Virus record (IMG/VR): IMGVR_UViG_3300007363_000050
Coordinates: 1-36,459 of that record
Reading direction: 5' to 3' (one strand)
From: a virus
Lineage: Duplodnaviria > Caudoviricetes
DNA: 36,459 nucleotides
Of the stretch, positions 913 through 33,821 are shown piece after piece. Numbering within the stretch: the first letter of the stretch is position 1; each line of letters opens with the position of its first letter. The translations under genes and the position numbers were made by a program. The notes under the pieces were generated by a model. That model saw only the letters and a list, made by a program, of their open reading frames with translations. It was not told the DNA's origin and ran no database searches.

Positions 913-3900
913 TTAGGTGGCGTTCGTCGTCGCCAGTAAGTAGTATACCGTGCCGTTCACTTTGAGCGCGATTTTGTGGGTCACCGTCGTGCTGGTGATA
1001 CCCGCATTGGTCACACCAGAACCCTCACAGTAGATAGCGGGAATGGTATTCCCAGCGCTGCGGTCGACGCTGTAGACCTGCACGGTGTCTGCAGGGCCGC
1101 TGCTCGGCTCCGTGCCATTCTTGAGGCCCAGCACGCCTGCCGCCGAGGTGCCAAAGGTCGTGACGTTGACGCCGACATTGCCGCTGCCATCGAGGCGCAA
1201 ACGCTCGGAGCCGCCTGTAAATATCGCAATGTTGTTTGCGGACGTCTCTGTCAGATAGGTATCGCCGCCACCGCCAACGCCGTCCAACATGACGCGACTG
1301 CCGCTAGCAATCGCGATATACCCACTAGAGGTAATGCGGAAACGCTCAGCTATGGTGCTTGCATTGGCCGTGGAAAAACGAATGTCTCCTGAAATATTTG
1401 TATCAGATACATACGTCACCGCCACGCCCTGTATGGTCGCAAGCGTTGTGTAATTCGTGCCCCCAAATGCGAGAAACGACATCGTGCCAATCGTGTCCAG
1501 CGACGCCACCGCCGTGGGAGACGCTTGCGTCCCGCGCGCTTTTCTAAACACCGTGGTGCCACCATTGGCGTCGGTACTAAACCGCGTCTGCCGTATCAGC
1601 ACTGTGCCGTCGCGCGCAATTTCAAACCCTTGGCCGAGTGTGCTTGTCACACCAAGACCCATATTGCCGCTGGCGTCTATGCGCAGGCGTTCCGCGCCAC
1701 CTGTGGCAATCGCAACCTCATCCGCGGCAGAGAAAAACACGCCGGTATTCAAATCTCCACTAGTCGTGATTGCTGGCGCACTCGCGGTGCCTGCCGTGAC
1801 GGTCACTGGCCCATCGCTGAACACGTAGCCCGTCGTGGCCCCACCAAACGTGAGCGTATCGGCCGCGTGGGTGATGGTGACATCGCCCGCGTTGAAGTTC
1901 ACGACCGCGCCAGAGGCGAGGAACAGGTCAGACCATGCCGTGCCACTGGCCCCCAGCGCGGCCCCGTCATTCGCCGTCGGGCGCACGGTCGCCGTGCCAA
2001 ACGTGGTCGTTCCGCTGCTGGTGGAGATAACGTCGACGCCTCCGACAACGATGTTGACCGTGTTAGCAGCCGCTTCGACGAGGTAGGTGTCGCCAGTCCC
2101 AGCGATACCATCGAGATATATACGTTTTGTAGCGGCAATGGCTAAGTTCTGAGCGATCGTCACATTGCCTGTCTCAAAAGCGTAGCCAGTAAAAGCGCCA
2201 AAAAACGTTAACTGGTTACTTGCGTGCGTGATGGTGACGTCTCCGGCATTGAAGTCCACCACCGCCCCGCTCGCCAGATACAGATCGCTGTAGGCCGTGC
2301 CAGACACGCCCAGCGCTGCGCCGTCATTGGCCGTTGGGCGAATCGTGCCCGTGGTCGTCAGATTGCCAGACCCCGCCCACGTGGACAGCGCGGTGTTCTC
2401 GACGTTGCTTAGGCCCACGTCGGTCTTAGTCACCGTGTCCCACGCCGGAGCGGCTGAGAGACTGCCCGTGCCGGTCTGCCGCAGGAAGTTGCGCGTGGTC
2501 GTCGTCTGCCCAGCCAGCCGCACATTATCGGTGCCGTCGTGGTAGATAACATCGCCCAGCGTGGTCGTCGGGGCCAGCGCGTCGAAGGCAGTGACCGCGG
2601 TGGTCTGCCCGGTGCCGCCATTGGCAATGGCAACCGTGCCCGTCACATTGGCGGCATTCCCCGCAATGTTGCCGGAAATAGCCGACCCAGGAATACTGGA
2701 GACCGCCGTAAAGGCTGAGCCACCATTGCCCACCAGATAGCCGGTGAGCGACGTTGCGCCGGTGCCCCCGTTTGGGACGCCCAGTGTGCCTGTAAAGCTA
2801 ATATCCGGCGTGGCACCTCCAGACGAGGCCAGCGGCGCAGACGCGGTGACCGCCGTGACGCCACCGCCACCACCGCCACCAGTCGCTGAGAGCGTGCCGC
2901 CCGTAAAGGACAAGTTCGCGCCGATGCTGACCGCGCTGAAGCCTCCAGAGCCGTTGCCATAGAGAATGGCCGTGCCCGAGGTCGCAGGCGCGTAGTCGAC
3001 GCCAGATGTTGCGGCCGTAAATGCCGAGGTGCCGTTGCCCTTGACCAGCCCCGTCAGACTTCCCACGCCGGTGCCGCCATTGGTCACGGCCACCAGCCCG
3101 GTCACGTTGGCCGCATTGCCCGCGATGTTCCCAGAGATGGCCGATCCTGGAATACTGGACACGGCGGTAAACGCCGACGACCCGTTGCCCACCAGGTAAC
3201 CGGTCAACGAGGTTGTGCCCGTGCCGCCGCTGCTGACGGCCAGCGTCTGGGACAGGCCCGCCGCGGTACCCGTGGTGTTCTGGTTGAGCGTAGGCACATC
3301 GGCCGCCTGAATGGCAGACATGACGACGTTGGAGCCGTTGCCCCGCAGATACTGCCCAGAGGTCACCGCTCCGGCGAACGTATTCATGGCAGCTTGCGCG
3401 GTCGACGCGCCGGTGCCGCCGTCGGCAACGGCCAAGTCCGCAATGCCGGAGATGGTGCCGCCGGTAATGGCCACGCTCGTGGCGTTCTGCGTCGACATCG
3501 TGCCCAGCCCGGTAATGTCGCTGCTCGGAATCGTGGACGCCGCGGTCATGGCAGACACGCCGTTTCCCTTGACGTAGCCGGTCAGGCTGGACGCCCCGGT
3601 GCCACCACGGGCCACGCCGAGTTGGCCCGTCCATCCCAGCGTGAGCGAGGTGTCGTTCACGAGCGCCGCCGACGGACTGCCGCCGAGCGTGAGCGTGACG
3701 TTCGTGTCGTCTGTCTTGGTCAGCGCACCAGGTGAGGCATTGACCCAGAGCGTGTTGCCCGCGTTGCGCTTGAAGAGTTGCCCTGCCGTCGGGCTGGTGA
3801 TGAGGACGTCGTGCAGTTCTTCCAGTTCCTGCCCATTGACGACCGAGACGTATAGGATGCCAGCGCCGCCCGGAGCCTGTCGCACGCATAGCCCCATAAA

Positions 3901-4779
3901 GACGCCATGCGCGGGCTGCGTGGGGCGCGTGCTGGTCAGTTCTCCAGCAGTCTCTGAGAGCCATACCAGCGCGCCTTCGGTCAGCGCGTTCGTATTGATG
4001 CCACGCAAAATGCCAGTGATACAGACGAATCCCTCAGCCGTGTGGGCGATGCTTTCTGCGGTGATGCCAAGCGTCGTGGCGGCGGTCAGTTCTCCGGATG
4101 CATCAGCTAGCGCCACTTCTGGCCGGTCGCCATGTGCGCCGAGGATATAGACCGCTTTCCCTTTGGCGATCGTCGTGCCGGTGCGGTTGATAACACGCAC
4201 CAGCTCTTGCGCGCCCAGTCGGTAACTCACATTTGCGTTGAGTGCCAACGTGAGCGTGCTGTCCGTGGTGTCCCACGCCATTGGCGCGGCACCGCCGTCC
4301 CAGTTGATGGCCCCTGCACTTGGCACAGCTACGCCGGTGACCGTGCCTCCGGTGATGGCCACGCTGGTAGCGTTTTGCAGGGCCATCGTGCCAAGGCCAG
4401 AGACGGCACTATTCGGGATTGTCAGTGACGCTGTGAACGGGCTACTTCCATTGCCGTAAACGTAGCCCGTCAGGCTCGACGCGCCGGTGCCACCATTGGC
4501 GACACCGACAATTCCGCTGAGGCTGATATTGGGGCTGAGACTGCCCACCACCGACAGCGGTGACGACGCCGTAATGGACTGCACTGCGCCTGGCACTCCC
4601 TGCGGCCCCTGTGGGCCTTCTGGTCCCTGCGGGCCAATGGCCCCGACGGACGCCACAACCGTGACGGTAGTGCCGTTGTCGATAACCTCAACGACGTTTG
4701 GCTGGTCGACGTTGTCGACGCTGCGCTGGTCCTCGTCGACGTTGACCGTGTTGGGCCGGTCATGATACTCCACGCTCAT
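913..4779 (-). CDS. Large Gly/Thr/Ser-rich fibre protein, 1288 aa (tail or head fibre)
   Basis: Short collagen-like GPQ stretch, many xxNGGTG repeats, duplicated RPTANDGAALG...SDLxLASGAVVxFNAGDVTITH module, ERLRI/ERLRL-xxxGN fibre motifs. Confidence 0.85.
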   Translation of the reverse strand: MSVEYHDRPNTVNVDEDQRSVDNVDQPNVVEVIDNGTTVTVVASVGAIGPQGPEGPQGPQGVPGAVQSITASSPLSVVGSLSPNISLSGIVGVANGGTGASSLTGYVYGNGSSPFTASLTIPNSAVSGLGTMALQNATSVAITGGTVTGVAVPSAGAINWDGGAAPMAWDTTDSTLTLALNANVSYRLGAQELVRVINRTGTTIAKGKAVYILGAHGDRPEVALADASGELTAATTLGITAESIAHTAEGFVCITGILRGINTNALTEGALVWLSETAGELTSTRPTQPAHGVFMGLCVRQAPGGAGILYVSVVNGQELEELHDVLITSPTAGQLFKRNAGNTLWVNASPGALTKTDDTNVTLTLGGSPSAALVNDTSLTLGWTGQLGVARGGTGASSLTGYVKGNGVSAMTAASTIPSSDITGLGTMSTQNATSVAITGGTISGIADLAVADGGTGASTAQAAMNTFAGAVTSGQYLRGNGSNVVMSAIQAADVPTLNQNTTGTAAGLSQTLAVSSGGTGTTSLTGYLVGNGSSAFTAVSSIPGSAISGNIAGNAANVTGLVAVTNGGTGVGSLTGLVKGNGTSAFTAATSGVDYAPATSGTAILYGNGSGGFSAVSIGANLSFTGGTLSATGGGGGGGVTAVTASAPLASSGGATPDISFTGTLGVPNGGTGATSLTGYLVGNGGSAFTAVSSIPGSAISGNIAGNAANVTGTVAIANGGTGQTTAVTAFDALAPTTTLGDVIYHDGTDNVRLAGQTTTTRNFLRQTGTGSLSAAPAWDTVTKTDVGLSNVENTALSTWAGSGNLTTTGTIRPTANDGAALGVSGTAYSDLYLASGAVVDFNAGDVTITHASNQLTFFGAFTGYAFETGNVTIAQNLAIAATKRIYLDGIAGTGDTYLVEAAANTVNIVVGGVDVISTSSGTTTFGTATVRPTANDGAALGASGTAWSDLFLASGAVVNFNAGDVTITHAADTLTFGGATTGYVFSDGPVTVTAGTASAPAITTSGDLNTGVFFSAADEVAIATGGAERLRIDASGNMGLGVTSTLGQGFEIARDGTVLIRQTRFSTDANGGTTVFRKARGTQASPTAVASLDTIGTMSFLAFGGTNYTTLATIQGVAVTYVSDTNISGDIRFSTANASTIAERFRITSSGYIAIASGSRVMLDGVGGGGDTYLTETSANNIAIFTGGSERLRLDGSGNVGVNVTTFGTSAAGVLGLKNGTEPSSGPADTVQVYSVDRSAGNTIPAIYCEGSGVTNAGITSTTVTHKIALKVNGTVYYLLATTNAT

Positions 4780-5132: not shown

Positions 5133-5552
5133 TTAACCCTCAAATCTTGGGGACGTTTGGAGTTCATCCAATATTTTGGATTGGATGGCGGCGCGCACCC
5201 ACGCATGGGCCACGCCACTGGTCACGTGCTGGGGGGTGACACGCAGAAAGCGCCACCCGGCGATGGCCAGCGCGGCAATCTTCTCGCAGTCGCCCATGAC
5301 GCCTGCGCCGCGCACGTGTCGGCCCCCGTTCCAGATGCCGCCGTCAATTTCCACGGCCACGCGGTGGTCAGGGAAAGCGATATCTACTCGCCACAGGCGC
5401 ACGGGGTGAAACCGGTATTCAGGCACAGCGCCGAGGTCAGCCGTGAGGGCGAGCAAGGTCGCTTGCGCCTTCGTCAGCTTCGGGCTAATTGCCGGTTTTC
5501 TGCGTGGACGGTTTCCACCCGGCCTTCCGCATGGCTCCGAAGATGTACGCAT
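5133..5552 (-). CDS. PD-(D/E)XK-type endonuclease (Vsr/DUF559-like); start codon uncertain
   Basis: PEYRFHPVRLWRVDIAFP...VAVEIDGG...GRH...DCEK...GWRFLRVT. Confidence 0.8.
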   Translation of the reverse strand: MRTSSEPCGRPGGNRPRRKPAISPKLTKAQATLLALTADLGAVPEYRFHPVRLWRVDIAFPDHRVAVEIDGGIWNGGRHVRGAGVMGDCEKIAALAIAGWRFLRVTPQHVTSGVAHAWVRAAIQSKILDELQTSPRFEG

Positions 5553-5634
5553 CCGCGCGCGCTCCCGTCAGGCCTTTTTTGGCAGCTTCCTTTTTCAGTT
5601 CGGTTTCCATTTTGGCAAACTTGCCTGTAGGCAT
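5485..5634 (-). CDS. Small basic hypothetical protein, 49 aa
   Basis: GAGGAG SD before ATG 5634; MPTGKFAK...ADAYIFGAMRKAGWKP. Confidence 0.7.
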   Translation of the reverse strand: MPTGKFAKMETELKKEAAKKGLTGARADAYIFGAMRKAGWKPSTQKTGN

Positions 5635-5662
5635 GGCCACTCCTCGTGGCATGGTAGCACGG

Positions 5663-5734
5663 TCACCGGTCCAGGTAACCGTCTGCCCAGAGGACCACGA
5701 CGAGGACCGCCCCAAGAATAAGGGCTGCGCTCAC
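5663..5734 (-). CDS. Very small membrane peptide, 23 aa
   Basis: GTGA overlap with the upstream stop; one hydrophobic stretch AALILGAVLVVVLW. Confidence 0.4.
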   Translation of the reverse strand: MSAALILGAVLVVVLWADGYLDR

Positions 5735-6456: not shown

Positions 6457-6728
6457 TGCATCCTCCGCAGGGCTTCGCGGTAGCCACTGTCAGCCGAATG
6501 GTGCGTGATGCCGTCCTTATGCACCTGAAACCGCTTGGCCCGTTCGTAGCGGATGAGGCGTGCCAGACTCTCGTAGACGTTGGCGCTGGTCTCGTCGCCA
6601 TGCCGCGCCGCGTAGGTGCTGCCGCAGACGGCGTGGTGCAGCAACTGATCCATGATGTCCCGGCTCGTCGCCTCGCGGATGTTGCGGCCCCAGCGGTCCA
6701 GGTCGATGGTGGGTGTAGATGGCATCAT
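6453..6728 (-). CDS. Hypothetical protein
   Basis: ATGA-coupled ORF in the early cluster. Confidence 0.7.
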   Translation of the reverse strand: MMPSTPTIDLDRWGRNIREATSRDIMDQLLHHAVCGSTYAARHGDETSANVYESLARLIRYERAKRFQVHKDGITHHSADSGYREALRRMQ

Positions 6729-8314: not shown

Positions 8315-8329
8315 CGCATCATCCTCCGT

Positions 8330-8720: not shown

Positions 8721-8766
8721 GGTGTCCTCCGTTAGTCAGTGTCGGCACCGCCCGCCGACAGAAACC

Positions 8767-11065: not shown

Positions 11066-11341
11066 TTAGAACGGAATGTCGTCGCTCGTCACCGCCCGAC
11101 GGCCGGACGGTGCGGCCGCAGGCGCGGCCTGCTGCCCCATCACGGTGCCCAGATAGCTCGAGAGCCAGGGCGTCTGCTCATAGATGCGATAGTCCGGCGT
11201 CTTTTCCCCGTCCTGCTTTTTGCTATTCGGAAACACCACAATGCGCTGCCCATTCACCGTGCCGCTGAGATAGGGCATCCCGTTCTTGCTCGTCTGCTTC
11301 CACAGACCGCCGATGTCTTTCTTCTGCTGCTGGTCGCTCAC
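11066..11341 (-). CDS. DUF736-like / SSB-like protein
   Basis: IGGLWKQTSKNGMPYLSG...PDYRIY and acidic C-terminal DDIPF; GTGA coupling. Confidence 0.75.
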   Translation of the reverse strand: MSDQQQKKDIGGLWKQTSKNGMPYLSGTVNGQRIVVFPNSKKQDGEKTPDYRIYEQTPWLSSYLGTVMGQQAAPAAAPSGRRAVTSDDIPF

Positions 11342-11994
11342 GCTGTCACTCCTTCTGGTTGCCGCCACGTCTGCACGGCCGCGTTGACCTCGGCCAGGAA
11401 CGGCTCAAGGTAATCCATCCGATACATCTCCACCCGAATTCTCGACACGACCTCCACCACCAGTTGCATATGCGGCGGCATCGCGGGGCAGTAGCTCGCC
11501 AGCCAGCAGGCATCAGCCCCAGTCACCAGCAGATTGTGCGTGCATTGGTCGAGGTAGTCACGCACCATCGCCATGGGCGCGTTCAGATAGCGCCAATGGG
11601 TCTTCGGCTTCGGCACCTTCAGTTCCACGATGTCGCCCTGACTGGTGTAGCCGTCGATGCTGCACCCGACCCACGGCAGCTGCGTCGATTGCAGGAAGCC
11701 AGACTCGAAGATGAGCGTGTCAAGGCGCGTCTCCAATGCCGACCGCGCCGCGCCTTCCAGTTCGCTGCCGCGGACCATCCACGGCGTGACGACGGCGTCC
11801 TCGGCACTCTGGCCCGTCAGTCGCTCGACCACCACCTGCGTCAGGTAGTCTTCACGCGCCGCGCTGGGCTTGCCGTCTTTCCGCGTCGCCGTGATGTCTG
11901 CGGCCCTCGACCCGGTCACGTAGCCTACACGTGCCTGGAGCCATTCCGACGTCCCCTGCGCCGCCGGATGCACCGTGTAGCGGTCAGGCCTCAT
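11338..11994 (-). CDS. YqaJ / lambda-type exonuclease
   Basis: QGTSEWLQARVG.VTGS...RGSELE...SIDG...VELKVP motifs; ATGA coupling to ERF. Confidence 0.9.
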   Translation of the reverse strand: MRPDRYTVHPAAQGTSEWLQARVGYVTGSRAADITATRKDGKPSAAREDYLTQVVVERLTGQSAEDAVVTPWMVRGSELEGAARSALETRLDTLIFESGFLQSTQLPWVGCSIDGYTSQGDIVELKVPKPKTHWRYLNAPMAMVRDYLDQCTHNLLVTGADACWLASYCPAMPPHMQLVVEVVSRIRVEMYRMDYLEPFLAEVNAAVQTWRQPEGVTA

Positions 11995-12602
11995 GCCTGC
12001 ACCTGCGCCGCACGGGCCTTGATGCCGCTCAGGTGCTGGTCGTAGTGCGTCTTGGCAAACGTCTTGTATTCCGGTTTGCTCGTCTTCCACGCCTCGGCCA
12101 CGGCCGCGGACCCATTTTCTGCCAGCACTTCGAGGTCCAGCAGCCACTGGCTGAAGCCTTCCGGCTCGGTCACCACCACTTCGTGCGTCGTGGCGTCCGC
12201 GTCTGGCGTGCCGTCGACGGGCACGCAGAACGCCTGAAACATCGCATACTTGTAGGCGGCAGACATCGCCTTGTTCGTGGCCTTGTCGCCAGAGTCCATC
12301 GCCTCGCCCATCACCCGAACGGTGTGATTCGACCCATCTTCTGCGGCCACAATGTCGTATTCGACGTCCAGCACCACATAAAACAAGGCCGTGCCACGCG
12401 CGTTCGCCCGTTCCACCACCGTGCGCGACAGCACCCGTGGCAGCAGCATCAGCCCGTGCCGCGCCATCACCGGCGACAGCGCGTTCATCACGTCATCAAT
12501 GCCCCGGAACCGGAAGCCTTGCGACTCGTTCTTCTGGCGCTTGCCCACGCCCACTTGCGCCAACTCTGCGGCCACAGCCGCAATTGCCTTGTAGACCTGC
12601 AT
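11991..12602 (-). CDS. erf: ERF-family single-strand annealing recombinase
   Basis: KNESQGFRFRGIDDVMNAL...GEAMDSGDKATNKAMSAAYKYA...DAD. Confidence 0.9.
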   Translation of the reverse strand: MQVYKAIAAVAAELAQVGVGKRQKNESQGFRFRGIDDVMNALSPVMARHGLMLLPRVLSRTVVERANARGTALFYVVLDVEYDIVAAEDGSNHTVRVMGEAMDSGDKATNKAMSAAYKYAMFQAFCVPVDGTPDADATTHEVVVTEPEGFSQWLLDLEVLAENGSAAVAEAWKTSKPEYKTFAKTHYDQHLSGIKARAAQVQA

Positions 12603-12620
12603 ATGCCCTCCGCTGTCGTT

Positions 12621-12722
12621 TTAGAATGCGCCCAATGCCACCAGTGTCCAGAAGGCCATGATGGGTCCCACCACCACGCCAAACACCAGCGCCTCGCCCC
12701 ACGTCGGTTCTTTCGCTCTCAC
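12621..12722 (-). CDS. Small membrane peptide, 33 aa
   Basis: GTGA overlap and GGAGG SD; MRAKEPTWGEALVFGVVVGPIMAFWTLVALGAF*. Confidence 0.55.
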   Translation of the reverse strand: MRAKEPTWGEALVFGVVVGPIMAFWTLVALGAF

Positions 12723-12937
12723 TTCGTCACCTCCTGCACTTTGCGCGGCCGTCCCGTCTTGCGGCGCGGCCGGTTCTGGATGGCCTCACGGTCGGCAGGC
12801 GTCAGGATGCACACGCCGCCAAACTTGCTCAGCGTCAGCCCCGTGGCCTGCACAAGCTGATGCACCCGCGCGCGGGTCACGCCACGCTCGGCCGCATACT
12901 CTTTCATGGTCATTGCCCCGTCCGGTCGATTGTCCAT
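12719..12937 (-). CDS. Small HTH DNA-binding protein (Cro/Xis-like) with C-terminal GRPRK AT-hook-like motif; probably leaderless
   Basis: MTMKEYAAERGVTRARVHQL; ATG 12937 lies 6 nt after a -10 box. Confidence 0.75.
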   Translation of the reverse strand: MDNRPDGAMTMKEYAAERGVTRARVHQLVQATGLTLSKFGGVCILTPADREAIQNRPRRKTGRPRKVQEVTK

Positions 12938-12943
12938 GAATTG

Positions 12944-12972
12944 ACTATACATCATGCAAGGCATCAGTGCAA
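12944..12972 (-). promoter_or_regulatory. Sigma70-type early promoter TTGCAC-N17-TATAGT
   Basis: Exact 17-nt spacing, immediately downstream of a terminator; contains an imperfect direct repeat TTGCA(C)TGATG. Confidence 0.75.
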
Positions 12973-12977: not shown

Positions 12978-13016
12978 AAAAAAAGCCCCGGCACCGTTGG
13001 GCGGCAGTGCCGGGGC
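12978..13016 (-). terminator. Rho-independent terminator
   Basis: GCCCCGGCAC...GTGCCGGGGC stem followed by T7. Confidence 0.9.
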
Positions 13017-13056
13017 AGGCGTGCGGAGGACACGCGCATTCGCGGAGGGCGAATGT
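12978..13056 (-). ncRNA. Predicted ~79-nt three-hairpin small RNA with two CCUCC (anti-SD) loops
   Basis: CAUUCGC-CCUCC-GCGAAUG; GCGUGU-CCUCC-GCACGC; terminator hairpin with CCGCCCAA loop; extended -10 directly upstream. Confidence 0.75.
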
Positions 13057-13060
13057 CTCG

Positions 13061-13069
13061 ACTATACCA
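13061..13069 (-). promoter_or_regulatory. Extended -10 promoter TGG-TATAGT for the small RNA
   Basis: TGn plus TATAGT, 5 nt before the first hairpin; no good -35. Confidence 0.6.
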
Positions 13070-13078: not shown

Positions 13079-13420
13079 TTAATGCACCACGCCCGACGGC
13101 GGCGGCGCAATGGCTGGCGGTTCGGCCTGCATCGGGGCCACAAAGACCGGCAACCCGAGGCACAGGGCCAGCCAGAGTTCCCAGCGCGCGCCACGCGAGG
13201 CTTCCCAGCTTGGCAACAGCACGATGGCGTCTGCCAAGCGCAGATGCCACAGGCAGACCAGCAGGCACCGCCACCACGGCCGCGTGATGGGGTTCAGCGC
13301 CGCTGGGTTGATGGCCGTAATGCCCCGCTGCCGCAAGCATTCCTCCATCGCGTAAAAGGCCGGATGGTTCCAGTTTGGAAGGCCTGTCATGGGTCCGGCG
13401 ATATAGACCAACGGCGTCAC
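13079..13420 (-). CDS. DUF4406-family protein (nucleoside deoxyribosyltransferase-like fold)
   Basis: VYIAGPMTGLPNWNHPAF...NPA...DAIVLLPSWEASRGARWE. Confidence 0.85.
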   Translation of the reverse strand: MTPLVYIAGPMTGLPNWNHPAFYAMEECLRQRGITAINPAALNPITRPWWRCLLVCLWHLRLADAIVLLPSWEASRGARWELWLALCLGLPVFVAPMQAEPPAIAPPPSGVVH

Positions 13421-15817: not shown

Positions 15818-15908
15818 GATGCCCTCCGAGTGCCACAAACCAGCGCCCGCACGCCGCGCACACCAGATATCCAGGGGTGCGTGACGTGGTCGGGCACTGG
15901 TCACACAT
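15735..15908 (-). CDS. Small CxxC-CxxC Zn-ribbon protein, 57 aa
   Basis: Manual translation MCDQCPTTSRTPGYLVCAACGRWF...; ATG 5 nt after the holin stop. Confidence 0.45.
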   Translation of the reverse strand: MCDQCPTTSRTPGYLVCAACGRWFVALGGHHGVADDCARVCAGDVCADGGGRGGLSA

Positions 15909-18473: not shown

Positions 18474-19910
18474 TTACGAGGTTTTAGTCTGGGCCAGCAC
18501 TTGGTCAAGCGTCTGCGTCCGCACCGACGGCGCGGCCTTCACCTGTCGGCTGATGTCGACGGTGGAATTAGCCACTGTGCCCTTGACGGAAATGGTCACA
18601 TCCTGCGCCACTGGCGCAGGGCTGGTGATGGACACGTTCGTAGGCGAGGTAATCGCCGTGTAGATGCGCGCCCCCGGATAGACTTGGCGTGCCACGTCGT
18701 GGCGAATATCATCCGCGACAAACGTAATCTCCTCATAGCCGCCAGAAATCTTGGAGGCCAATGCGGCCGCGCGTGGAGCCACCTCATTGCGCGCCAGGAC
18801 CGTATTGTCATCCAGCACAATACGCGCCGCGCGGACCACGGAATCATTGATGTCACGCAGCGTCAAACTCGCCGTTGCGTTCGTGGCACGACCAAACCAG
18901 CGCACCGCGGTGCCAGCAGGCCACGCCGTCGTAAGCGACGAAATCAATTCCAGATAGCCTTCCGTCGCCGCCAGATAGGTGCGCCCTGCGAAATACACCG
19001 ACGCGATCTCTGTGCCCACTTGGATGGCATTGTTCACGGCGATGCCACCGGGAAAGCCCGGAATCAATCCATCATTCGGCAGATAATCTGGCGCAATGAA
19101 CGACACCATATCTTGCAGGTAAATACGCGTGCTGTTGACATCCGTCGCCAGTGTCGTGCCTTTGCCTAGGACGCGCGCTTCGGTCGCCGTATTCGTGTAA
19201 TCACGGTAGACGTTGACATCGGCCACGTTGCGGCTGGTCGTCGTGATGGTGTTGACCTGCGAGAGGTGGTCCGCGTTCTGGAACACATGCACGTGCCGGT
19301 CTGGCGTCACGCTCAGATACGCGCTGGCCGTGTCGGCTACCCGCTGCAAGGCCTCAAGGAGCGTCGCGTTATCAAACGTCAACTGCGGCGCATCGCCCAG
19401 CCCCTGCGAGATATACCCAGGCACGAACACGCTGTTGTATTGATTCAGGAGCTGCCCGACCAGCGTATTGAAGCCCACGCTGCCATAGGTGCCCGTCACG
19501 CCGCCCGTCTGGTTGAGCTGCCACGTGAGGTCCTGCGCGGCGATCTCGCTCACCACCGTCTGCGACACATGCCGCAGCACGTCGCGCCGCTCCAGCATGT
19601 TGCCCTCAAACAGCACATCGCCAAAATCTGTCGGGCTGGTCGTGGTCGTCAGTGACGAGGGCGGCACCTGCGTCACGCGCACGAGGCCCGCATTCAGCAG
19701 CGCCGTGTCATTGAGCAGCGTGAAATTGAGCGTCGACGGCTCGCCCAGTTTCTGCGCGATTTGCCAGTCATTGGCGACATATGGCGTAATGTCCCGCCGA
19801 ACATACGTCGACCCGGCCACCGTGCTGCTGACCCAGAATTGCAGCCGCCGAGGATACACCCCCAGCGTCATGCTTCCCACGGTGCCAGAGCCGACAATGC
19901 CGTGGCTCAT
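18474..19910 (-). CDS. Tail tip / baseplate hub-like protein
   Basis: Follows the tape measure gene; beta-rich, 478 aa; call is mainly positional. Confidence 0.65.
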   Translation of the reverse strand: MSHGIVGSGTVGSMTLGVYPRRLQFWVSSTVAGSTYVRRDITPYVANDWQIAQKLGEPSTLNFTLLNDTALLNAGLVRVTQVPPSSLTTTTSPTDFGDVLFEGNMLERRDVLRHVSQTVVSEIAAQDLTWQLNQTGGVTGTYGSVGFNTLVGQLLNQYNSVFVPGYISQGLGDAPQLTFDNATLLEALQRVADTASAYLSVTPDRHVHVFQNADHLSQVNTITTTSRNVADVNVYRDYTNTATEARVLGKGTTLATDVNSTRIYLQDMVSFIAPDYLPNDGLIPGFPGGIAVNNAIQVGTEIASVYFAGRTYLAATEGYLELISSLTTAWPAGTAVRWFGRATNATASLTLRDINDSVVRAARIVLDDNTVLARNEVAPRAAALASKISGGYEEITFVADDIRHDVARQVYPGARIYTAITSPTNVSITSPAPVAQDVTISVKGTVANSTVDISRQVKAAPSVRTQTLDQVLAQTKTS

Positions 19911-22597
19911 GCGGCCCGTCCCACCCGGCGCAGATTCTTACTCAGTTCATCGCGCACGATATCGGCCAGCCCCGTCCGCGCCGTCGGGCTGTCGAGGTAG
20001 CCTGCCACGTTAATCACGACGTTGACCGCAGGGCCACCCCCACGCGGCGCACGGGCCTGCTCCGGCGTCAGCACGACCTCACCTGGGCGCAGCAGCGCCG
20101 GAATGATGTCACGGCTTGAGGGCGGGCGATAGTCGCGGCCTGCGACGCCGCCTTTATCGAATCCGTAGGCGGTGGTGTCGTAGTCAGAGAACCGCACCCG
20201 AATGTCCGTGGGCACACCGCTGATGGCGTCAGAGGCATTGCGCGCAAAGTCTTGCGCGGACCGCTCGGCCTTCTTAAAGGCACCATCCAGCCCGCCAGAC
20301 ATCTTCTCGACCAGTTCGGTAATCTTGGCAATCAGTTTGTCAATGGCCGTCTCGATGGGCGCGCCAAACTTGATGTTCCCCAGTTCGGTCAGCTTGCGCC
20401 CGTTCTCGTCGGTCAGCTTGCCCTGTGCCAGCATGGCATCCAGAATCGGCCGCAGGTTCTCCGGCACCGTCGACCCGGTCTTGATGGCATTGGCGAGGAA
20501 CTGATTGATTTCATCGGACATGCCCGCAATGACCGCGTTCACATCTGCGCCACCCTTGACCATCGTGTCAAACGACCCGATGATGTCAGCCGCCGTCTCG
20601 TTGATTTTGTTCTGATTGAATGCAGGCCCAAGCGCCGCCAGTTCGACGCCGTATTTCTTGGCAGCATCTTCCATCGCCTTGAACTGGCTTTTGCTGCCAG
20701 CGCCGAGGCCTTCCAACAGTTTGCGGTTTTCCTCGGTCAGTTGCCCCGACTCAATCAGTTTGTCAATCGCCAGTTGCAGCGATTCTGGCAGCACGACGCC
20801 GAGGGTATCGGCCTCTTTCAGCAGCGTGCCCATCTCGGTGTTCATTTTGGCGAGTTCTTCTTTGGCCTTCGCTGCCGCCTCTTCAGCCGCTTTCAATTGC
20901 GCGTTGAAGTCCTTAATCGCGGCTTCCATATCCTTGGCGTTCTTGATGGTAAACAGCTTGTCCATCGACACGCCTGCGGCATTGGCGCGTTCGCGCACGG
21001 CGTCAACGCCACCGCCAAGTTCAAAGAACTTGTTCCGCATGTCGGTGATGGCTTTCTGCTGGCTATTGCCAAACAGTTTCCCGAACAGCTTCCCCGCCAG
21101 TTCGCCGCCCAGCTGGCCCGCAATTGCGCCCATCGGCCCGCCGAGACTGCCTAGCGCCTTCCCGAGTGTCGGCCCAAGGCTTTTGCCAATGACCGCGCCA
21201 AACTGCTGCCCGAGGTCCGCGCCCAGCCCTTGCCCCAGCATCGAGCCAATCGTCTTGGTGACCGACCCGCCGCCCTGCACCGCGCCCACCACGGCAGGGC
21301 CGAGGTTCTGGAATGCCGTGGCCAACCCTTCGAACGAGGGCTTGAACCGCTCTGTGTCGCGCTGCACGGTTTGCGCGAACGTCGACCACGCCTTTGACCC
21401 TTGGCTGCTGAAATAGCTAATGCTGCCCTGAAACTTCAGCAGGGCCGCTGTGGCGTTGTCCACGGGCTGGCGGTCAAACTCGAAAATGTCGGTAATCTTC
21501 TTGCCGCCAGACGCATTGAGCCGCAGAATCTCCGCGTCAAGCCGTTGCACCCACTGGCTGGCGTATTCGATGCCCGTGCCCATCACAATGGACGCCTCGC
21601 GCGCTTTTTCCTGCGCGGCGGCAAGCCGCAAGATCTGCTTTTCTGAGGCCTCGGCGGCGCGCCGCTGGTCGTCGAGCGCTTTGCTGGCTTTGTTAAAGTC
21701 ATCGACCGCGACGCTGCCCAACCCGGGCGGTATCAGCTTGCCTGTGATATCGGCCACTTTGGGCAATTCGTTGGCCAGCGCCGCCATATCATCGCCCAGC
21801 CCCATCGTGAGTTGCCGCGCCAGCGTGAACGGCTCGACAATCATCCGATACGTTTCCACGCCGACGGCGACAATGGTGCCAATCAGCACCTTCCCCGCCT
21901 GCGTGACGTAGTTCATGGCGTCACCAGCCGCGTCGAGGTTGCCAATCACTTCCTGACTCATGACCAGGCTGACGTCTTCCGCGCCCTTAGCGACCTCTTC
22001 GAACATGGGAATCAGTTCCGCACCACTGCGGCCAAACAGCGCCACCGCCGCTTGCGCCTGCTCAGAGTCGCTGCCGATCTGCCCAATGGCCGAAGCCACG
22101 GCCCTGAACCGATCTTCTGGGCTGAGCGTCAAGAGTTCGCTGGTGCTGAGGCCCAAGTCGCGGACCGCGTCACTCGCTTTCTTGCCCCCGCCCTCCAGCG
22201 TCTTGTCAAGAAACGTGACGGCTCGCGCCATCGTTTCCATCGAACTGCCGGTCTGCTCGGCTACAAACCCCAGCGATTGCAGCGCATCCGTGCCGATACC
22301 CGTCCGCGCCGATAAGTCATTGACGGCTGAGCCAAACTCAATGGACCGGTCAATGGCTGCGCCAATGGCGGCATAGGACACGTATTGCATGACCGATTTG
22401 GTCAGCAGGTCCATGCTGCTGCCCGCGTCGGAGGTCTGCTTGCCCACCTGCGCGGTCTTGCTGCTGAGGGTGTCGGTTTTGTCCCCGGCTTCTTTCGCCG
22501 CGTCGCCCATCTCGCCCAGCGCGCGTTCGGCGTTTTTCAGTGCGTCGACCGCCTGAGCAATGTCCGCAGTGATTTTGATTTCCAGTTCGCGTGCCAT
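19907..22597 (-). CDS. Tape measure protein, 896 aa
   Basis: Long Ala/Gly-rich helical protein after the chaperone genes; LFGRSGAELIP; C-terminal GG...DIIPALLRPGEVVL. Confidence 0.92.
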   Translation of the reverse strand: MARELEIKITADIAQAVDALKNAERALGEMGDAAKEAGDKTDTLSSKTAQVGKQTSDAGSSMDLLTKSVMQYVSYAAIGAAIDRSIEFGSAVNDLSARTGIGTDALQSLGFVAEQTGSSMETMARAVTFLDKTLEGGGKKASDAVRDLGLSTSELLTLSPEDRFRAVASAIGQIGSDSEQAQAAVALFGRSGAELIPMFEEVAKGAEDVSLVMSQEVIGNLDAAGDAMNYVTQAGKVLIGTIVAVGVETYRMIVEPFTLARQLTMGLGDDMAALANELPKVADITGKLIPPGLGSVAVDDFNKASKALDDQRRAAEASEKQILRLAAAQEKAREASIVMGTGIEYASQWVQRLDAEILRLNASGGKKITDIFEFDRQPVDNATAALLKFQGSISYFSSQGSKAWSTFAQTVQRDTERFKPSFEGLATAFQNLGPAVVGAVQGGGSVTKTIGSMLGQGLGADLGQQFGAVIGKSLGPTLGKALGSLGGPMGAIAGQLGGELAGKLFGKLFGNSQQKAITDMRNKFFELGGGVDAVRERANAAGVSMDKLFTIKNAKDMEAAIKDFNAQLKAAEEAAAKAKEELAKMNTEMGTLLKEADTLGVVLPESLQLAIDKLIESGQLTEENRKLLEGLGAGSKSQFKAMEDAAKKYGVELAALGPAFNQNKINETAADIIGSFDTMVKGGADVNAVIAGMSDEINQFLANAIKTGSTVPENLRPILDAMLAQGKLTDENGRKLTELGNIKFGAPIETAIDKLIAKITELVEKMSGGLDGAFKKAERSAQDFARNASDAISGVPTDIRVRFSDYDTTAYGFDKGGVAGRDYRPPSSRDIIPALLRPGEVVLTPEQARAPRGGGPAVNVVINVAGYLDSPTARTGLADIVRDELSKNLRRVGRAA

Positions 22598-22947
22598 TAG
22601 CGCGGCGTCTCCTTCCGGGGCGGTGAGACTACATCGTAGATGATGCGGAGCCGCTCAGACATGTCGCGGAACTCGTCCGCACTCAGATGTTGGGTGAGTC
22701 GGTCCAGCACGACCGCGCCCGCCTGCAAGTCTTGCGTAAACCGGTTGCAGCACGAGCGATACAGCGCCCACGCCTCTCTGTTATCCTCGTCGAGCGCGTC
22801 GACCTGCTGTTGGAGCAAGCAGGCCGAACAGTCATACTGCTCGGCCTCCTGCTCCAGTAGTTCATCGGGCGCGACCTGGCAGCAGATAACCTGCCCGGTC
22901 ATGACCGAATCAGCCCAAAACTCAGCCCACCGGGTCAGTCCGGCGAA
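22597..22947 (-). CDS. Tail assembly chaperone C-terminal extension (gpT-like), probably reached by frameshift
   Basis: Open +1 frame overlapping the chaperone end, without a good SD/start; YDCSAC...NREAWALY. Confidence 0.65.
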   Translation of the reverse strand, partial: FAGLTRWAEFWADSVMTGQVICCQVAPDELLEQEAEQYDCSACLLQQQVDALDEDNREAWALYRSCCNRFTQDLQAGAVVLDRLTQHLSADEFRDMSERLRIIYDVVSPPRKETPR

Positions 22948-23335
22948 AGGAGTTCTCGCGCACGGCGTCGGCCTGCACAATCTGCGTGAGGCCTGCCCGC
23001 CCGACCAGCGCCGCCTTGACCACGCTGTCAAGACGCAGCTTGTTCTCAGTGGTGCAGGGCGCAGGTGCGCCGCCCCGCTCCACAATGCCGCTCCAGCCCA
23101 CCAGCACGTAGTCTACGAGGGCATCCGCAAACGCTTCCGCATCCGTCTCGGACTCCATCGCCTTGGTGGCCTTGTTGGGCACCCGCTTGGTGTGGGCCTT
23201 GTGAATGCGCCGCCACGTGTTGGTCGTCAGTTCGCGGAGTTCGTAGCGCACCTCAGGGTCGGCTTCACTGATATCGTCGAGGTCAGTCTCGGCCACCCAA
23301 AAGGTGAGGTCATCGGTCTGTAGCTGTCGCGGCAT
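22922..23335 (-). CDS. Tail assembly chaperone (gpG-like), 137 aa
   Basis: AAGGAG SD; between tail tube and tape measure; LVGWSGI...PCTTENK. Confidence 0.8.
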   Translation of the reverse strand: MPRQLQTDDLTFWVAETDLDDISEADPEVRYELRELTTNTWRRIHKAHTKRVPNKATKAMESETDAEAFADALVDYVLVGWSGIVERGGAPAPCTTENKLRLDSVVKAALVGRAGLTQIVQADAVRENSFRRTDPVG

Positions 23336-23364
23336 GCTCGGTGCGCTCCTTGAAAGTCCCGCCG

Positions 23365-24429
23365 CTAGAATGCGACGAGAGACTGCGTGGTAATACGAGT
23401 GATGCGGAACGGGTTGGTAAAGGCCATGCCGTTCGGAGAGGTCGCAGCCGACTTGGCCAGGAACGTCACCTGCGGCTTGACCTGATTCGCACCGCTTTCG
23501 GTGGCCACGAATCCGTCCGTGTCCAGTTCCAGCGCGGGCCACTCGATGCGCTCGGTGAACCGGTCGGTCGAGTTGATGTAGCTGCCGAGGAACTCCATAT
23601 CGGCCTTGAATACGGTGTCCGCACGCAGGGCCGCGTAGACGCTGTTGGCCGACACGGTGTTCATGCGCGGGAACGTGATGGTCAGTTTCGTCTCCGGGAA
23701 TCCGGCATCGGCCGGTTCGAAGATGAAATCCTGCCCGGTCACGTTCGGGGCATCCTGCGGCCGCGAGAACTCGAACGTGAAGCCTTCGAGGTTGACCGCG
23801 TTGGTCGCCGCCAGTGACCCCGCCGACTGCGGGTTGAGACGGAACGTGCCCTGCCGACGGAAGACGCGATTGTCCAGCGCCGGGTAGGTGGCCCCGTTGA
23901 CGGTGCTGCGCGTGTTGACCGAGGAAATGTCTGTCATCTGCGCGGCCATCAGGTTGAACGTCGTGTCCATGACGCCGGAATCGCCCACGGTCTTGCTCAT
24001 GCCGTAGACCTTGGCCGAGGTCATCTCGTCCACGAACGTCACCTTGTCATAGGCCATGGTGACGCCCAGCCCGTCAATCGACGGGGCAAGGTCAATCACG
24101 TGCCGCCACGAGGTCGTCTGCGTGGTGGCCGAGGTGCTGATGGTCACGGCGGCGGGTGACCCCATCGCCAGTGCCTCATAGACATACTGATAATCCGCGT
24201 AGCGGTCCTGCTTCGTCAGCGTGATGTCCTGCGCCTGCGTGTCGCCAAAGTCGCCACGGCCCAGAAACGTCTGGCCCAGCGCCTCATCATTGACACGCAG
24301 CCGCGAGAGCTTCGCGCCGCCGTCCGAGGTGAAGTGAATGCCGCGCGTGACCGAGGCCGCGACGCCCCATGAGTTGGTCGCAAACTTCGCAAACGCGGCT
24401 TTAATTTCTCTGCCGGTCAATCCTGCCAT
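23365..24429 (-). CDS. Major tail tube protein
   Basis: Position, size (354 aa), AGGAG SD, beta-rich composition, strong codon bias. Confidence 0.8.
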   Translation of the reverse strand: MAGLTGREIKAAFAKFATNSWGVAASVTRGIHFTSDGGAKLSRLRVNDEALGQTFLGRGDFGDTQAQDITLTKQDRYADYQYVYEALAMGSPAAVTISTSATTQTTSWRHVIDLAPSIDGLGVTMAYDKVTFVDEMTSAKVYGMSKTVGDSGVMDTTFNLMAAQMTDISSVNTRSTVNGATYPALDNRVFRRQGTFRLNPQSAGSLAATNAVNLEGFTFEFSRPQDAPNVTGQDFIFEPADAGFPETKLTITFPRMNTVSANSVYAALRADTVFKADMEFLGSYINSTDRFTERIEWPALELDTDGFVATESGANQVKPQVTFLAKSAATSPNGMAFTNPFRITRITTQSLVAF

Positions 24430-24441
24430 GTGTGGACTCTC

Positions 24442-24870
24442 CTACACTTGAGCTTCGTAGTTGAGCGGCATCGTCAAGCGCAGCGTGAGATACGACGCGC
24501 CGATCGGTGCCGCCACTTCCCAGGCTCGACCAGTATCCGGAACGGTGTATTCACCCGAGGTGACGTGCCCGTCCTGAATAATCGCTGCGGTCAAGCTGGA
24601 ACAATCTCTGACCAAGGTCGCATGCGTCGCCACGTAGTCCGCGGCAATCTGCCGCGCCACTTCGATGTCCAGCGTATCGACCCGGTCTTCGGAATACCCA
24701 AACCCTCCAAGACTGTTCCCGCCCCGAATCTTGCACCGGAACACGGCGTCGCTGCTGCCGGTTCCCTGCAAGGCGAAGTCCTCGCTGCTGACAGCCTCGC
24801 GCCAGTAGAACGGCGCATCGACCATCAAGGATCGCACTCGGTTCAGAAGCACATCTGGAGTCGTTGCCAT
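24442..24870 (-). CDS. Tail terminator / completion protein
   Basis: Immediately upstream of the tail tube; 142 aa; TAATG coupling. Confidence 0.6.
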   Translation of the reverse strand: MATTPDVLLNRVRSLMVDAPFYWREAVSSEDFALQGTGSSDAVFRCKIRGGNSLGGFGYSEDRVDTLDIEVARQIAADYVATHATLVRDCSSLTAAIIQDGHVTSGEYTVPDTGRAWEVAAPIGASYLTLRLTMPLNYEAQV

Positions 24871-25742
24871 TAGGCCCTCGTCCACTGAAAGGACGCGCCG
24901 CCGCCGGTCACATCGTCAGCGGTCTGCGTTATTTCCGTGGTATCCACTTGGTCATCCACCGTCACGGTGTCAAAGTCGCGTGCGACCAGTGCCAACGCGC
25001 CCTGCATGGCCTCTTCGGCCTCGCGGAAGTAGGCGTCGGCCTTCTCCTGCCACGGCCCGCCCTGCATCGTCTGCGCCTCGCGGAAGATGAGGCCCAGCGT
25101 GCGGAGCGTCACCGGCCCCGTCAGCGCCGTGCCGCGGATGCAGCCAATCTGCCCGCAATACGCGCCCGTGGGCGTCGCGCTGACCTTGAGCCGTGCCCAG
25201 TAGAGCGGCGCGGACCCGTTGACCGCGCGCGTCACCCAGTCTTGCGGCATCTCCCAGCGCACATCCCCGCCGCGGGAGAACGGTTTGACGTTCAGGAACT
25301 GCGTCTCGTTCAGCGTGCCCACGCTCGTCCACGCATCCGACCACACCTGCACGGTCAGCGTGCCCGCCGCCGTCGCCACGCGGTCGAGCATGCGAATGGA
25401 CAGCCCGCGGAACTGCTCCTGCGAGCCGATGTAGAGGAAGTCGCTTGACGGCGCAGCAAAGACGGTGCCCAGCGGCAGGCCGTCGACGCCCACGGTCGTG
25501 GCGGCGCTGGTGTAGTCCACGTAGTTGCCACCCGTATAGCCCCACACCTGCGCTGGCGCACGCCGTGTCCGCAGGCGCTCAGGCACGTAGCCCGCCTTGG
25601 CCAGCGTCGGAAACGCCCAATCCTCCAGCGCCTTCCGGCGCTTGGCCTGCCAATCCGTCTTGCCGAACTGCGTCAGAATGCTCTGCTCGTAGTCCTGCAA
25701 ATCGGAGTCGAACACCACATCATTGGGAAACCAGACGCTCAT
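24870..25742 (-). CDS. Head-tail adaptor-like protein with inserted beta domain
   Basis: Helical C-terminus (WQEKADAYFREAE) like neck proteins; central DFLYIG...W.MP.DW...YWAR domain. Confidence 0.55.
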   Translation of the reverse strand: MSVWFPNDVVFDSDLQDYEQSILTQFGKTDWQAKRRKALEDWAFPTLAKAGYVPERLRTRRAPAQVWGYTGGNYVDYTSAATTVGVDGLPLGTVFAAPSSDFLYIGSQEQFRGLSIRMLDRVATAAGTLTVQVWSDAWTSVGTLNETQFLNVKPFSRGGDVRWEMPQDWVTRAVNGSAPLYWARLKVSATPTGAYCGQIGCIRGTALTGPVTLRTLGLIFREAQTMQGGPWQEKADAYFREAEEAMQGALALVARDFDTVTVDDQVDTTEITQTADDVTGGGASFQWTRA

Positions 25743-28660: not shown

Positions 28661-28838
28661 CGATGGACTCCTTGCGCGGGCGTCCTGGGCCACGGCGTAG
28701 CGGCTCGTCGACGGCGTCCAGCACCTCTAGGCGCGGGCCAATGACATCGGCCAGATACCGCTGCCACCGCTTAAACACATCCGGCCGCACATCCTGCGGC
28801 CCTCGCGCTCGGCAAATCTCTTCCAGAATCGGGTCCAT
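28650..28838 (-). CDS. Small protein with C-terminal RRGPGRPRK AT-hook-like motif
   Basis: GAGGAG SD; directly after the major capsid gene. Confidence 0.7.
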   Translation of the reverse strand: MDPILEEICRARGPQDVRPDVFKRWQRYLADVIGPRLEVLDAVDEPLRRGPGRPRKESIDAR

Positions 28839-32243: not shown

Positions 32244-33821
32244 CTACGCGGGCGGTTCCTGCATGTCCATCACATCTAGGGTCATCCGGTCAGTCAAGGC
32301 CTGTAGCCCTGCCTGCCGTCGCGCCGTTGGTGATTCGGTGGGCGTCTGCACGATATCGTCGTCAATCTGCTGGAGCGTGTCCAGATGCACATCCGGCAGC
32401 ACCGCACGGGCGGCGCGCTTGCGAATCTCGCCCGTGGCCGTCTGGCCGAGGTCCAGCGCCATGGCATCGGCAAACTGCTTGATGACCTTTTCCAGATTCA
32501 GCGTGTCGAACTGGTCAGGCCAGCGGATGGTCAGCTCGTCGGCCGCTTCCCACCGGTCAGCCGCGTCACCGTAGGCGGCACGATAGACCAGCCTGGTCAC
32601 AAACTCGTCCACGCGCTGCAACTCGTCCGCGAATCCGGCCAACTGCTGGTTCAGGTCTTCGCGCTTAATCTGCCGCGCGTCTGCCGATTCGGCCGCGCGT
32701 CCGTCCGACTCCCATGGCAGCACGCTCAGCCGGTAAATCGTGCGCTGGAGCCGGTCCATGTGGTCATGGTAGGACTGCACGTTGGTGTTATCGGGCGACA
32801 GCATCTGCGCCGAATTGGTCGTGAACAGAATGTTGCCCGTGCCTGACTGCTGACCGATGAGTTCCTGTTCTTTCTGCACCCCACCAGGCGTCTCTCCAAT
32901 CGGGACGTTCAAGATTGAGAACGTCTGCTTGCGGAGCAGTTCGCGCGTCTCGCTGATGAGGTTGTAGAGGTCGATATAGAGCTGCGGATCACCCAGCACC
33001 GACCGCCCCACAAACGGCGTCAGCGCACGGCGGCGGGCATACATCACGAAGGCAGGCACCACGCCGAAGTCGTGCGTGCCCGAGGCAATCTCCTTGCCCG
33101 AGCGGTTCAGCAGTTTCCAGCCCTCGGCGTCCACTACGCGCACGCGCACGTCCACGCTGTAGGCCGTTGAGGTCTTCGCGTAGCTTTCACGCGGCACGGC
33201 TTCCAGAAACTTGACGCTGACCAACCGGTTGTTATCGTCCACCAGCCAGTCAATGACGTCGATGGGCGTATACCAGCGCACGTACGCGCGGCGCGGGTCG
33301 TCGGGCTGCACGTCGACGTAGCCCCAGAGATGGCCAAACGCGGCGCACGGCCCCCACGCCTCTTTCAGGAGGTCGTTCCAGTTTGTGCCGTTGCCATCCG
33401 CGTCATTCCAGAACAGCTCGATGGGCCGTCGCACGGCGACCGTCGGCGCGTTGGGCCCGAAGGACCGCTGCGGTTTATGGCGGAAGAGTGCCCCGCTCAG
33501 TTGCTCGATGAGCGTGGACGCAATGTTCTCGTAGCGGGCCAGCTTGCGCCGCTCTTTCAGTTTCGGAGACGGCTTCGACGGGTTGGCGTTGACCTCAAAC
33601 CGCAGCAACTGGCCGCCGTCGCCAAAGACCGGGGACGAATGGTCGAGCCACTCGCGTGGATGGGCAATCAGGTAGGGCTTGGTGTCGTCGAGAAACCCTC
33701 CCGCGCCTTCGTAGACGTCGAGGAGCTTGACCCACACGTCGCGCCACCGCAGGTAGAGCGGATGCACGACACCGATAACAGAGGACGGCGCACCGAGCGG
33801 CGCTGATGCTGGGATAGCCAC
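32244..33821 (-). CDS. Portal protein (GTG start, probably leaderless)
   Basis: HPLY..W...W....DVYEG, RRKLARYEN, AESADAR; size and position. Confidence 0.88.
   Translation of the reverse strand: MAIPASAPLGAPSSVIGVVHPLYLRWRDVWVKLLDVYEGAGGFLDDTKPYLIAHPREWLDHSSPVFGDGGQLLRFEVNANPSKPSPKLKERRKLARYENIASTLIEQLSGALFRHKPQRSFGPNAPTVAVRRPIELFWNDADGNGTNWNDLLKEAWGPCAAFGHLWGYVDVQPDDPRRAYVRWYTPIDVIDWLVDDNNRLVSVKFLEAVPRESYAKTSTAYSVDVRVRVVDAEGWKLLNRSGKEIASGTHDFGVVPAFVMYARRRALTPFVGRSVLGDPQLYIDLYNLISETRELLRKQTFSILNVPIGETPGGVQKEQELIGQQSGTGNILFTTNSAQMLSPDNTNVQSYHDHMDRLQRTIYRLSVLPWESDGRAAESADARQIKREDLNQQLAGFADELQRVDEFVTRLVYRAAYGDAADRWEAADELTIRWPDQFDTLNLEKVIKQFADAMALDLGQTATGEIRKRAARAVLPDVHLDTLQQIDDDIVQTPTESPTARRQAGLQALTDRMTLDVMDMQEPPA

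Follow-up and report, generated by a model that had tools for sequence, protein, structure and literature searches.

A structured unit of about 76 nt in the genome of an uncultured phage is likely a small RNA gene, and its complementarity to start regions of the same genome suggests that it acts in trans on ribosome-binding sites (RBSs). We consider it probable that the RNA blocks the RBS of erf and thereby damps the erf-led recombination/replication operon and, probably, a few other non-structural genes. The unit has promoter-like and terminator-like ends and a stable fold, holds the same place in five lineages and is complementary to the phages' own erf starts. The seed, directed against a distant RBS, appears to be kept or to co-vary with it across these lineages. 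The feature is real and, as judged from sequence, represents a new example of the trans-encoded small RNAs (sRNAs) directed against Shine-Dalgarno (SD) sequences, with a fast co-variation of seed and target.

The window, i.e., the whole stretch of DNA that was analyzed, comprises the entire virus record IMGVR_UViG_3300007363_000050 of 36,459 nt, with direct terminal repeats, a CheckV completeness of 78% and a G+C content of 63%. The four runs matching it best are freshwater metagenomes. A search for close cultured phages gave none (best capsid match 29%), and the best 80 of 83 erf relatives in GTDB included no prophage of this phage family. The minus strand carries all called genes, in the order terminase, portal, capsid, tail, endolysin, phosphoesterase, dNMP kinase and DUF4406, followed by the RNA element and then by the HTH gene, a 33-aa peptide, erf, exonuclease, DUF736 and the replication initiator (Table 1). 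The erf, exonuclease and DUF736 genes are likely translationally coupled. A −10-like hexamer lies only 6–7 nt ahead of the HTH-gene ATG in 8/8 loci (the window, G001–G003, L125, L363, L364 and L368), and the HTH gene is therefore likely leaderless.

An earlier, sequence-only reading of this DNA had described a phage with no obvious CI. This is only roughly right, since the genome carries the HTH_17-type gene behind the RNA as well as a 78-aa Cro/C1-type HTH gene at 33872–34108, between terminase and portal. No tyrosine or serine integrase was found in any of four records (the window record and three related ones), and no partition gene was detected among the 58 window proteins scanned against PHROGs. 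Further genes of this genome include a 984-aa protein in the structural block (25739–28693), which combines two glycosyltransferase domains with a methyltransferase domain and has an equal-sized counterpart at the same place in G002, and a tail-fibre-like gene of 1288 aa (913–4779), located behind the early genes and apart from the tail block. In G003, about seven extra genes precede the terminase (about 19900–24800) which are not in the window, some of them resembling DNA-modification genes by eye.

Table 1. Coordinates of the RNA element, its neighbors and its predicted targets in the window
Feature	Position	Strand	Basis or remark
Predicted small RNA, about 76 nt	12978–13054	−	Fold and synteny; 5' end inferred at 13054–13057
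Predicted extended −10 promoter of the RNA (TG-N-TAnnnT)	13061–13069	−	Sequence; same place in 4/5 lineages, −35/−10 pair instead in L363
Hairpin 1, 5-nt CCUCC loop at 13048–13044	13037–13055	−	Fold; perfect match of 9 bp to the erf RBS and 8 bp to the 15817 RBS
Hairpin 2, 5-nt CCUCC loop at 13029–13025	13019–13035	−	Fold; perfect 10-bp match to the 8720 RBS
Intrinsic-terminator-like hairpin, 8-nt C-rich loop at 13004–12997, U7 tail	12978–13016	−	Stem 13016–12985, 12 pairs, 10 of them G-C
DUF4406 gene, upstream of the RNA element	13079–13420	−	Missing from G003, whose kinase gene directly adjoins the RNA promoter
72-aa HTH gene, constant neighbor of the RNA	12719–12937	−	Relatives carry PF12728 HTH_17
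Predicted −35/−10 promoter of the HTH gene, leaderless start	12944–12972	−	Sequence
erf, exonuclease and DUF736 genes, stops overlapping the next starts	11066–12602	−	PHROG 155, PHROG 149, PF05284; coordinates
Main predicted target, erf start region	12598–12635	−	RBS arm 12613–12605 and upstream arm 12631–12624 pair with RNA nt 5–21
Predicted target 2, leader behind the 8795 promoter	8722–8760	−	RBS 8731–8722; 5' hairpin 8760–8741
Predicted target 3, start of a 36-aa hydrophobic peptide before the phosphoesterase	15819–15855	−	RBS 15828–15821; upstream arm 15855–15846
Additional candidate, RBS ahead of the 8314 start (65-aa gene with a hydrophobic head)	8321–8328	−	RBS match; apparent G002 orthologue is the best RNAcofold target there
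Additional candidate, RBS ahead of the 6456 start (44-aa hydrophobic gene)	6458–6469	−	12-bp match

The motifs quoted in the sequence-only reading, namely the extended −10, two CCUCC hairpins, the terminator, the RBS matches and boxes upstream of them, were all recovered at the same positions on the minus strand, and the unit has a stable predicted fold (−43.9 kcal/mol, z = −6.45, equalled by 0/200 shuffles). The terminator of the RNA is the top terminator-like site of the whole window, in which such sites are overall not more frequent than in shuffles (16 vs. 11.5 ± 3.5; 12 vs. 13.4 ± 4.0). Its promoter is missing from a consensus promoter scan because it has no −35 element. A coding reading of the element, with an ORF leading from 13039 into the HTH frame, was rejected, as this frame is closed in 7/7 relatives. 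Likewise, no reading frame is conserved across the element, and the loop lengths of L125, L364 and L368 differ by non-multiples of three. At the sequence level, an own promoter, an intrinsic terminator and a non-coding character, by which trans-encoded RBS-blocking sRNAs are recognized, are found in 5/5 lineages.

Searches by similarity assigned the RNA to no known family, including the Rfam search suggested in the sequence-only reading: in a scan of the whole window, Rfam gave no match over the element at E ≤ 5 (one unrelated chance hit lies elsewhere), and none of six relative loci reached a gathering score. Comparison of the element with 50,697 phage records by blastn yielded short matches only, with E of at least 0.7 among the 20 of 59 matches listed. 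Two loop-pattern scans of viral contigs (at least 120 loci each, in 13/64 and 2/64 parts) retrieved a relative of 92% identity in the first case and nothing with the architecture of the element in the second. Contigs of three RNA runs cover the genome thinly and the element next to not at all, and are uninformative for a 76-nt RNA.

The relative of 92% overall identity, G001, is complete, and the RNA is unchanged there save for one U, which concerns the length of the U tail; such conservation is unremarkable, given that the two genomes share 16 identical runs of greater length. Among the differences listed for contigs of four further runs, none falls within the RNA or either erf pairing arm. 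The listed strain differences at the erf target sit in the predicted bulge and its flanks, and the upstream arm is also coding. In one contig of run X11, a 9-nt insertion at 12635 duplicates the GGGCG box ahead of erf.

Three start regions of the window are predicted targets, with RBS matches at 8731–8722, 12613–12603 and 15828–15819 and GGGCG boxes beginning 15–17 nt ahead of them, at 8753, 12633 and 15848. At erf, 17 contiguous RNA bases pair as 9 + 8 around a 10-nt bulge of the target (RNAcofold ddG −19.4, rank 1/64); this region contains the GGGCG-bearing box at 12635–12629, and an alternative helix spans the start codon. In the second target, the loop and 3' arm of the leader hairpin (8752–8743) match RNA nt 43–52, i.e., 10 bp with the 5' arm plus loop of the terminator. 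This hairpin and the RBS are retained in G001, with a changed spacer separating them and a different gene downstream. The second helix of the third target consists of 10 bp between the 3' side of hairpin 2 and 15855–15846. These second helices exceed in length those given in the sequence-only reading. The sites lie at about 380–450 nt (erf), 2.8 kb (15817) and 4.3 kb (8720) from the RNA, the last one behind its own promoter.

The sequence-only reading had asked how these three sites compare with other starts, and a two-helix model indeed gives them ranks 1 to 3 among 64 starts. RNAs with redrawn stems but the same loops equalled the three named sites in 1/200 trials and reached any top three as good in 6/200. 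With the RBS match alone, 8 (8720), 31 (erf) and 225 (15817) per 1000 redrawn RNAs did as well, and the 15817 match by itself is not significant. The starts at 6456 and 8314, not listed in the sequence-only reading, equal 8720 and 15817 in their match to the CCUCC hairpins, but are without the GGGCG box. Among the starts listed (the 16 best and all with GGAGG), an upstream GGGCG occurs in 3/15 GGAGG starts (at −31, −33 and −31), precisely the three predicted targets, vs. 1/50 other starts at that distance.

Interactions were scored with our own simplified accessibility script rather than IntaRNA, on a start list from a simple gene finder plus manual additions. The net energies in this accessibility model are modest (−6 to −8) because the 5-nt loops of the window RNA are closed by strong stems. 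A scan independent of gene calls placed the erf RBS ahead of every other coding-strand site in the window, G003 and L363, and no lower than the sixth row for G001, G002 and L125; one opposite-strand site outscored erf in the window and in G002. A loose genome scan permitting gaps and G-U pairs did not single out the predicted targets.

Searches with erf, kinase and HTH sequences delivered the lineages L363, the L125 group (L125, L364 and L368), G002 and G003 in addition to the window. Broader HTH and capsid scans added no further lineage, 0/5 of the longest capsid relatives hold erf or the HTH gene, and in a 42-kb relative without both genes a heuristic scan found no promoter-bounded unit. In all five lineages, a −10 motif, a structured unit of 62–76 nt and a U tail directly precede the HTH gene, and the folds are well below those of shuffles (z −4.8 to −9.3). 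Proteins are 61–64% identical between the lineages. The units align at a mean column identity of 56%, too low for a covariance model, with the base of the terminator stem as the most similar part, and their architecture has been rebuilt: three hairpins are present in the window and L363, L125 has a small hairpin plus a long terminator whose loop is C-rich, and G002 and G003 combine one long hairpin with a free 5' tail.

Complementarity to the own erf start accompanies these changes. It amounts to 17 bp in L363 (2 G-U), where the equivalent of hairpin 2 has a changed stem pair and pairs over 17 nt with the erf RBS, to 16 bp in G003 (14 Watson-Crick, across the AUG), to 9 bp in G002 and to 8 bp in L125. 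Using the accessibility model, erf ranks first for its own RNA among 52, 60, 55 and 29 starts, i.e., in 4/4 lineages with enough sequence; when accessibility is left out, it ranks 6/60 in G002 and 5/29 in L125. RNAcofold places erf first in only 2/4 lineages (outside the top 8 of 60 in G002, 23rd of 29 in L125), and this program cannot model loop-only pairing, which is the type found in G002 and L125. The G-U pairs would, we infer, favor pairing with RNA over pairing with DNA. In the two L125-group strains that have GGGAG in the next RBS, the loop has gained CUCCC, which hints at a further joint change, with net energies of only about −2.

The cognate assignment of RNAs to erf starts was the best of 120 permutations under three scorings, RNAcofold included, where 1/120 is the floor of the test and the five lineages are related and hence non-independent. 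As a control, 133 distinct erf loci were compared, 106 of which have an upstream terminator-like unit; the three best matches between unit and erf were those of G003, G002 and L125, and the window type came 9th. The discrete non-coding unit pairing in trans with RBSs of its own phage, as predicted in the sequence-only reading, is thus supported, with an erf match that is kept and co-varies in five lineages. The match is not specific to the lineage within G002, G003 and L125, the three with G-runs: the G002 RNA also ranks the erf starts of G003 and L125 first, and the L125 RNA pairs slightly better with the erf start of G003 than with its own. It is therefore the window, L363 and G003 that chiefly carry the case for specificity. 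When four other orthologous start regions, including peptide genes, were put through cross-matrices, little or no cognate preference was seen, and erf is the only target common to all five lineages.

The co-variation which that reading had proposed as a check was found between the RNA seed and the erf RBS, but does not extend to the GGGCG box: besides the window, G002 has a second box of a different form, L125 only a weak one and G003 none. As a general mechanism, a second box pairing with the terminator loop is not supported: it is not family-wide, and stem strands, instead of the terminator loop alone, often build the second helix of the window RNA. Split targets are seen at the three window sites and two G002 sites, and G003 and L363 have a single long seed. 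In G002, the 5' tail matches the hairpin loop at an early promoter over 8–9 bp; L125 does so weakly and G003 not.

The early promoters themselves (window 8741–8760; G002 26167 and 31738; L125 3656 and about 9150) are followed immediately by a hairpin of 6–8 bp with conserved arms and a variable loop of 5–7 nt. It likely functions as RNA, at the 5' end of the early transcripts; a reading as DNA operator is disfavored by the loop lengths of 5–7 nt and a G-U pair. A gap of 285 nt before the replication initiator in G002 (about 27900–28185) and L125 (about 5420–5700) has a promoter-like motif and a segment with inverted repeats, nearly identical in the two lineages, which could represent a second RNA or a leader.

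A more trivial explanation would regard the unit as a mere terminator of a long upstream transcript (late, lysis or nucleotide genes), with hairpins that stabilize its 3' end or pair in cis with erf in read-through RNA. The orientation of all called genes on one strand, the rank of the site as strongest terminator-like site and the location of erf only about 380–450 nt downstream agree with this. Yet a promoter-like motif is kept just ahead of the unit in 5/5 lineages, a plain terminator leaves the co-varying seeds unexplained, and the 8720 and 15817 sites are kilobases away, the former under a promoter of its own. We therefore judge this explanation improbable; if an RNA processed from such a 3' end acted in trans, this would fall under the RBS-blocking sRNA that we favor, as one form of it.

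Loops with CCUCC or C-runs fit many host SDs. This raises the option of a broad anti-SD RNA aimed mainly at host mRNAs for host takeover, with the phage matches being secondary, and precedents include the anti-SD loops of the cuckoo RNAs (PMC4615179) and the phage sRNAs PreS and DicF, which are described to act on host mRNAs (PMC12197685). The 16–17-bp seeds of G003 and L363, however, track the erf start of the own genome and not a universal SD, which makes a primary role on the host side a poor candidate in our view.

Alternatively, the RNA could mainly control small hydrophobic peptides of the phage (those of 15817, 8314 and 6456 and of the gene preceding erf), as their type I-like antitoxin or brake, and erf would then be a mere passenger. 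Several candidate targets are in fact peptides of 33–65 aa with hydrophobic stretches. In G002, the leader of a 63-aa hydrophobic-headed gene, apparently the 8314 orthologue, repeats 12 nt of the RNA's own terminator arm (32529–32557, 6.7 kb away), and the G002 RNA forms a 26-bp duplex with it in three helices (ddG −21.6, rank 1/60). Type I antitoxins lie opposite or next to a small toxin gene and share long complementarity with it, whereas the RNA described here is on the same strand as its targets and distant from them, the peptide genes being 0.2–6.7 kb off and neither overlapping nor adjoining, with one 26-bp duplex, that in G002. Moreover, it is erf that all five lineages share as target, and the peptide genes gave little or no cognate preference in the cross-matrices, so that we regard this role as very improbable.

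For the RBS-blocking sRNA acting on erf, the following course can be envisaged. A host sigma-70-type polymerase would make the RNA from the start of infection, and pairing would nucleate where its C-rich loops or tails meet the exposed SD. The window duplex could then spread by opening of hairpins 1 and 2, until the 17 RNA bases enclose the 10-nt bulge of the target. SD-covering sRNAs of this class block 30S binding, and the paired RNA would do so at the erf RBS and stop translation. As erf, exonuclease and DUF736 overlap from stop to start, one site would damp the whole recombination/replication block. A stable RNA would accumulate in the course of infection and could thus restrain early genes with a delay, or set a threshold for them, in this integrase-less phage, whereas the neighboring HTH gene, being leaderless, would be beyond its reach. 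Non-structural starts match the RNA better than structural ones (p 0.026, 0.005 and 0.007), a difference to which SD style could contribute; these better matches would fit a brake on early genes.

The same RNA and the same pairing could also serve immunity. A resident genome, either in a carrier state or as the first infecting phage, would maintain a high level of the RNA and silence its own erf operon and that of incoming kin, and seed and target would diverge as immunity types. This differs from the brake on early genes in role only, shares its pairing mechanism and partly overlaps with it. Seed and target are remodelled together between lineages while the proteins stay 61–64% identical, the RNA promoter looks constitutive, and P4 is described to use an RNA for immunity (PMC4825925). 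On the other hand, integrase and partition genes were missing in the searches described above, and the cross-matching between G002, G003 and L125 would blur immunity types; we thus think an immunity role rather unlikely. In its boldest form, an RNA lock-and-key would replace the protein repressor in this integrase-less family, the RNA and the erf leader being rewritten together in each lineage to gate the operon and to set a lineage-specific superinfection immunity or carrier state, which we offer as a tentative and doubtful proposition.

The role of non-coding RNAs in lytic phages was considered largely unresolved in a 2024 review (PMC10884466, accessible in part), and phage RNAs against own genes are, in the accessible portion of a further overview, mostly antisense to one gene or linked to lysogeny (PMC12197685). 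Here, the target of a trans-acting RNA could be named from comparative sequence alone, as seed and target change jointly while the fold is rebuilt. This co-variation names the target and makes the test direct, which is the chief value of the finding, and the natural compensatory pairs across lineages are suited for a cheap reporter assay. RNAs of this kind escape searches with covariance models, and synteny combined with self-complementarity can find them instead.

Neither the element nor any phage sRNA directed at erf was described in the literature that we searched, in which subscription journals were thinly covered. The resemblance to cuckoo RNAs, P4 CI and P1 c4 drawn in the sequence-only reading is one of function at most, as the loop motif, the Rfam matches and the flanking target sites that define these families were looked for and not found. 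The c4 RNA of P1/P7 is a small phage RNA of similar size which silences the phage's own replication-side genes via split target sites; the Rfam C4 and isrK models matched neither the window nor six relative loci. P4 CI likewise is a small phage RNA of similar size silencing own replication-side genes via split sites, a silencing that is predicted for the window RNA; CI, as described in the accessible text, is processed from a primary transcript, pairs with the flanking seqA and seqC and causes premature termination (PMC4825925, PMC10111431). In contrast, the window RNA has its own promoter-like and terminator-like ends, and its target RBSs are 0.4–4.3 kb away.

With cuckoo/RSs0680 (CcsR), the window RNA has in common that it is short and has adjacent hairpins, anti-SD loops, variable stems and a terminator end, but cuckoo RNAs are described with CCUCCUCCC in each loop of 2–4 adjacent hairpins, compared to a 5-nt CCUCC in 2/3 hairpins of the window RNA (PMC4615179). 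The other lineages have CCUCC in one loop or in none, or have dropped this architecture altogether, and the window RNA is phage-borne, with predicted targets on its own genome and no Rfam match.

The RNAs sar of P22, OOP and aQ of lambda and the asRNAs of PAK_P4 are cis-encoded. Together with 24B_1 of Phi24B, they are phage RNAs that repress own genes by base pairing; in the part of the overview accessible, 24B_1 is described as a processed 20-nt RNA proposed to act on d_ant, and the others as antisense to one gene each, with sar blocking translation initiation (PMC12197685). Unlike these, the window RNA shares the strand of its targets, is trans-encoded and is predicted to have several of them. 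SviR of the Vibrio satellite PLE comes close in this respect, as an sRNA from a mobile element that acts in trans on several targets, among them transcripts of the own element, but is satellite-encoded, conserved across PLEs and described to lower the translation of helper-phage mRNAs (10.1101/2022.04.08.487710), whereas the window RNA diverges fast together with its own erf leader. As far as its features can be read, the RNA is not a member of the cuckoo, CI or c4 families and would work like a trans-encoded anti-SD sRNA.
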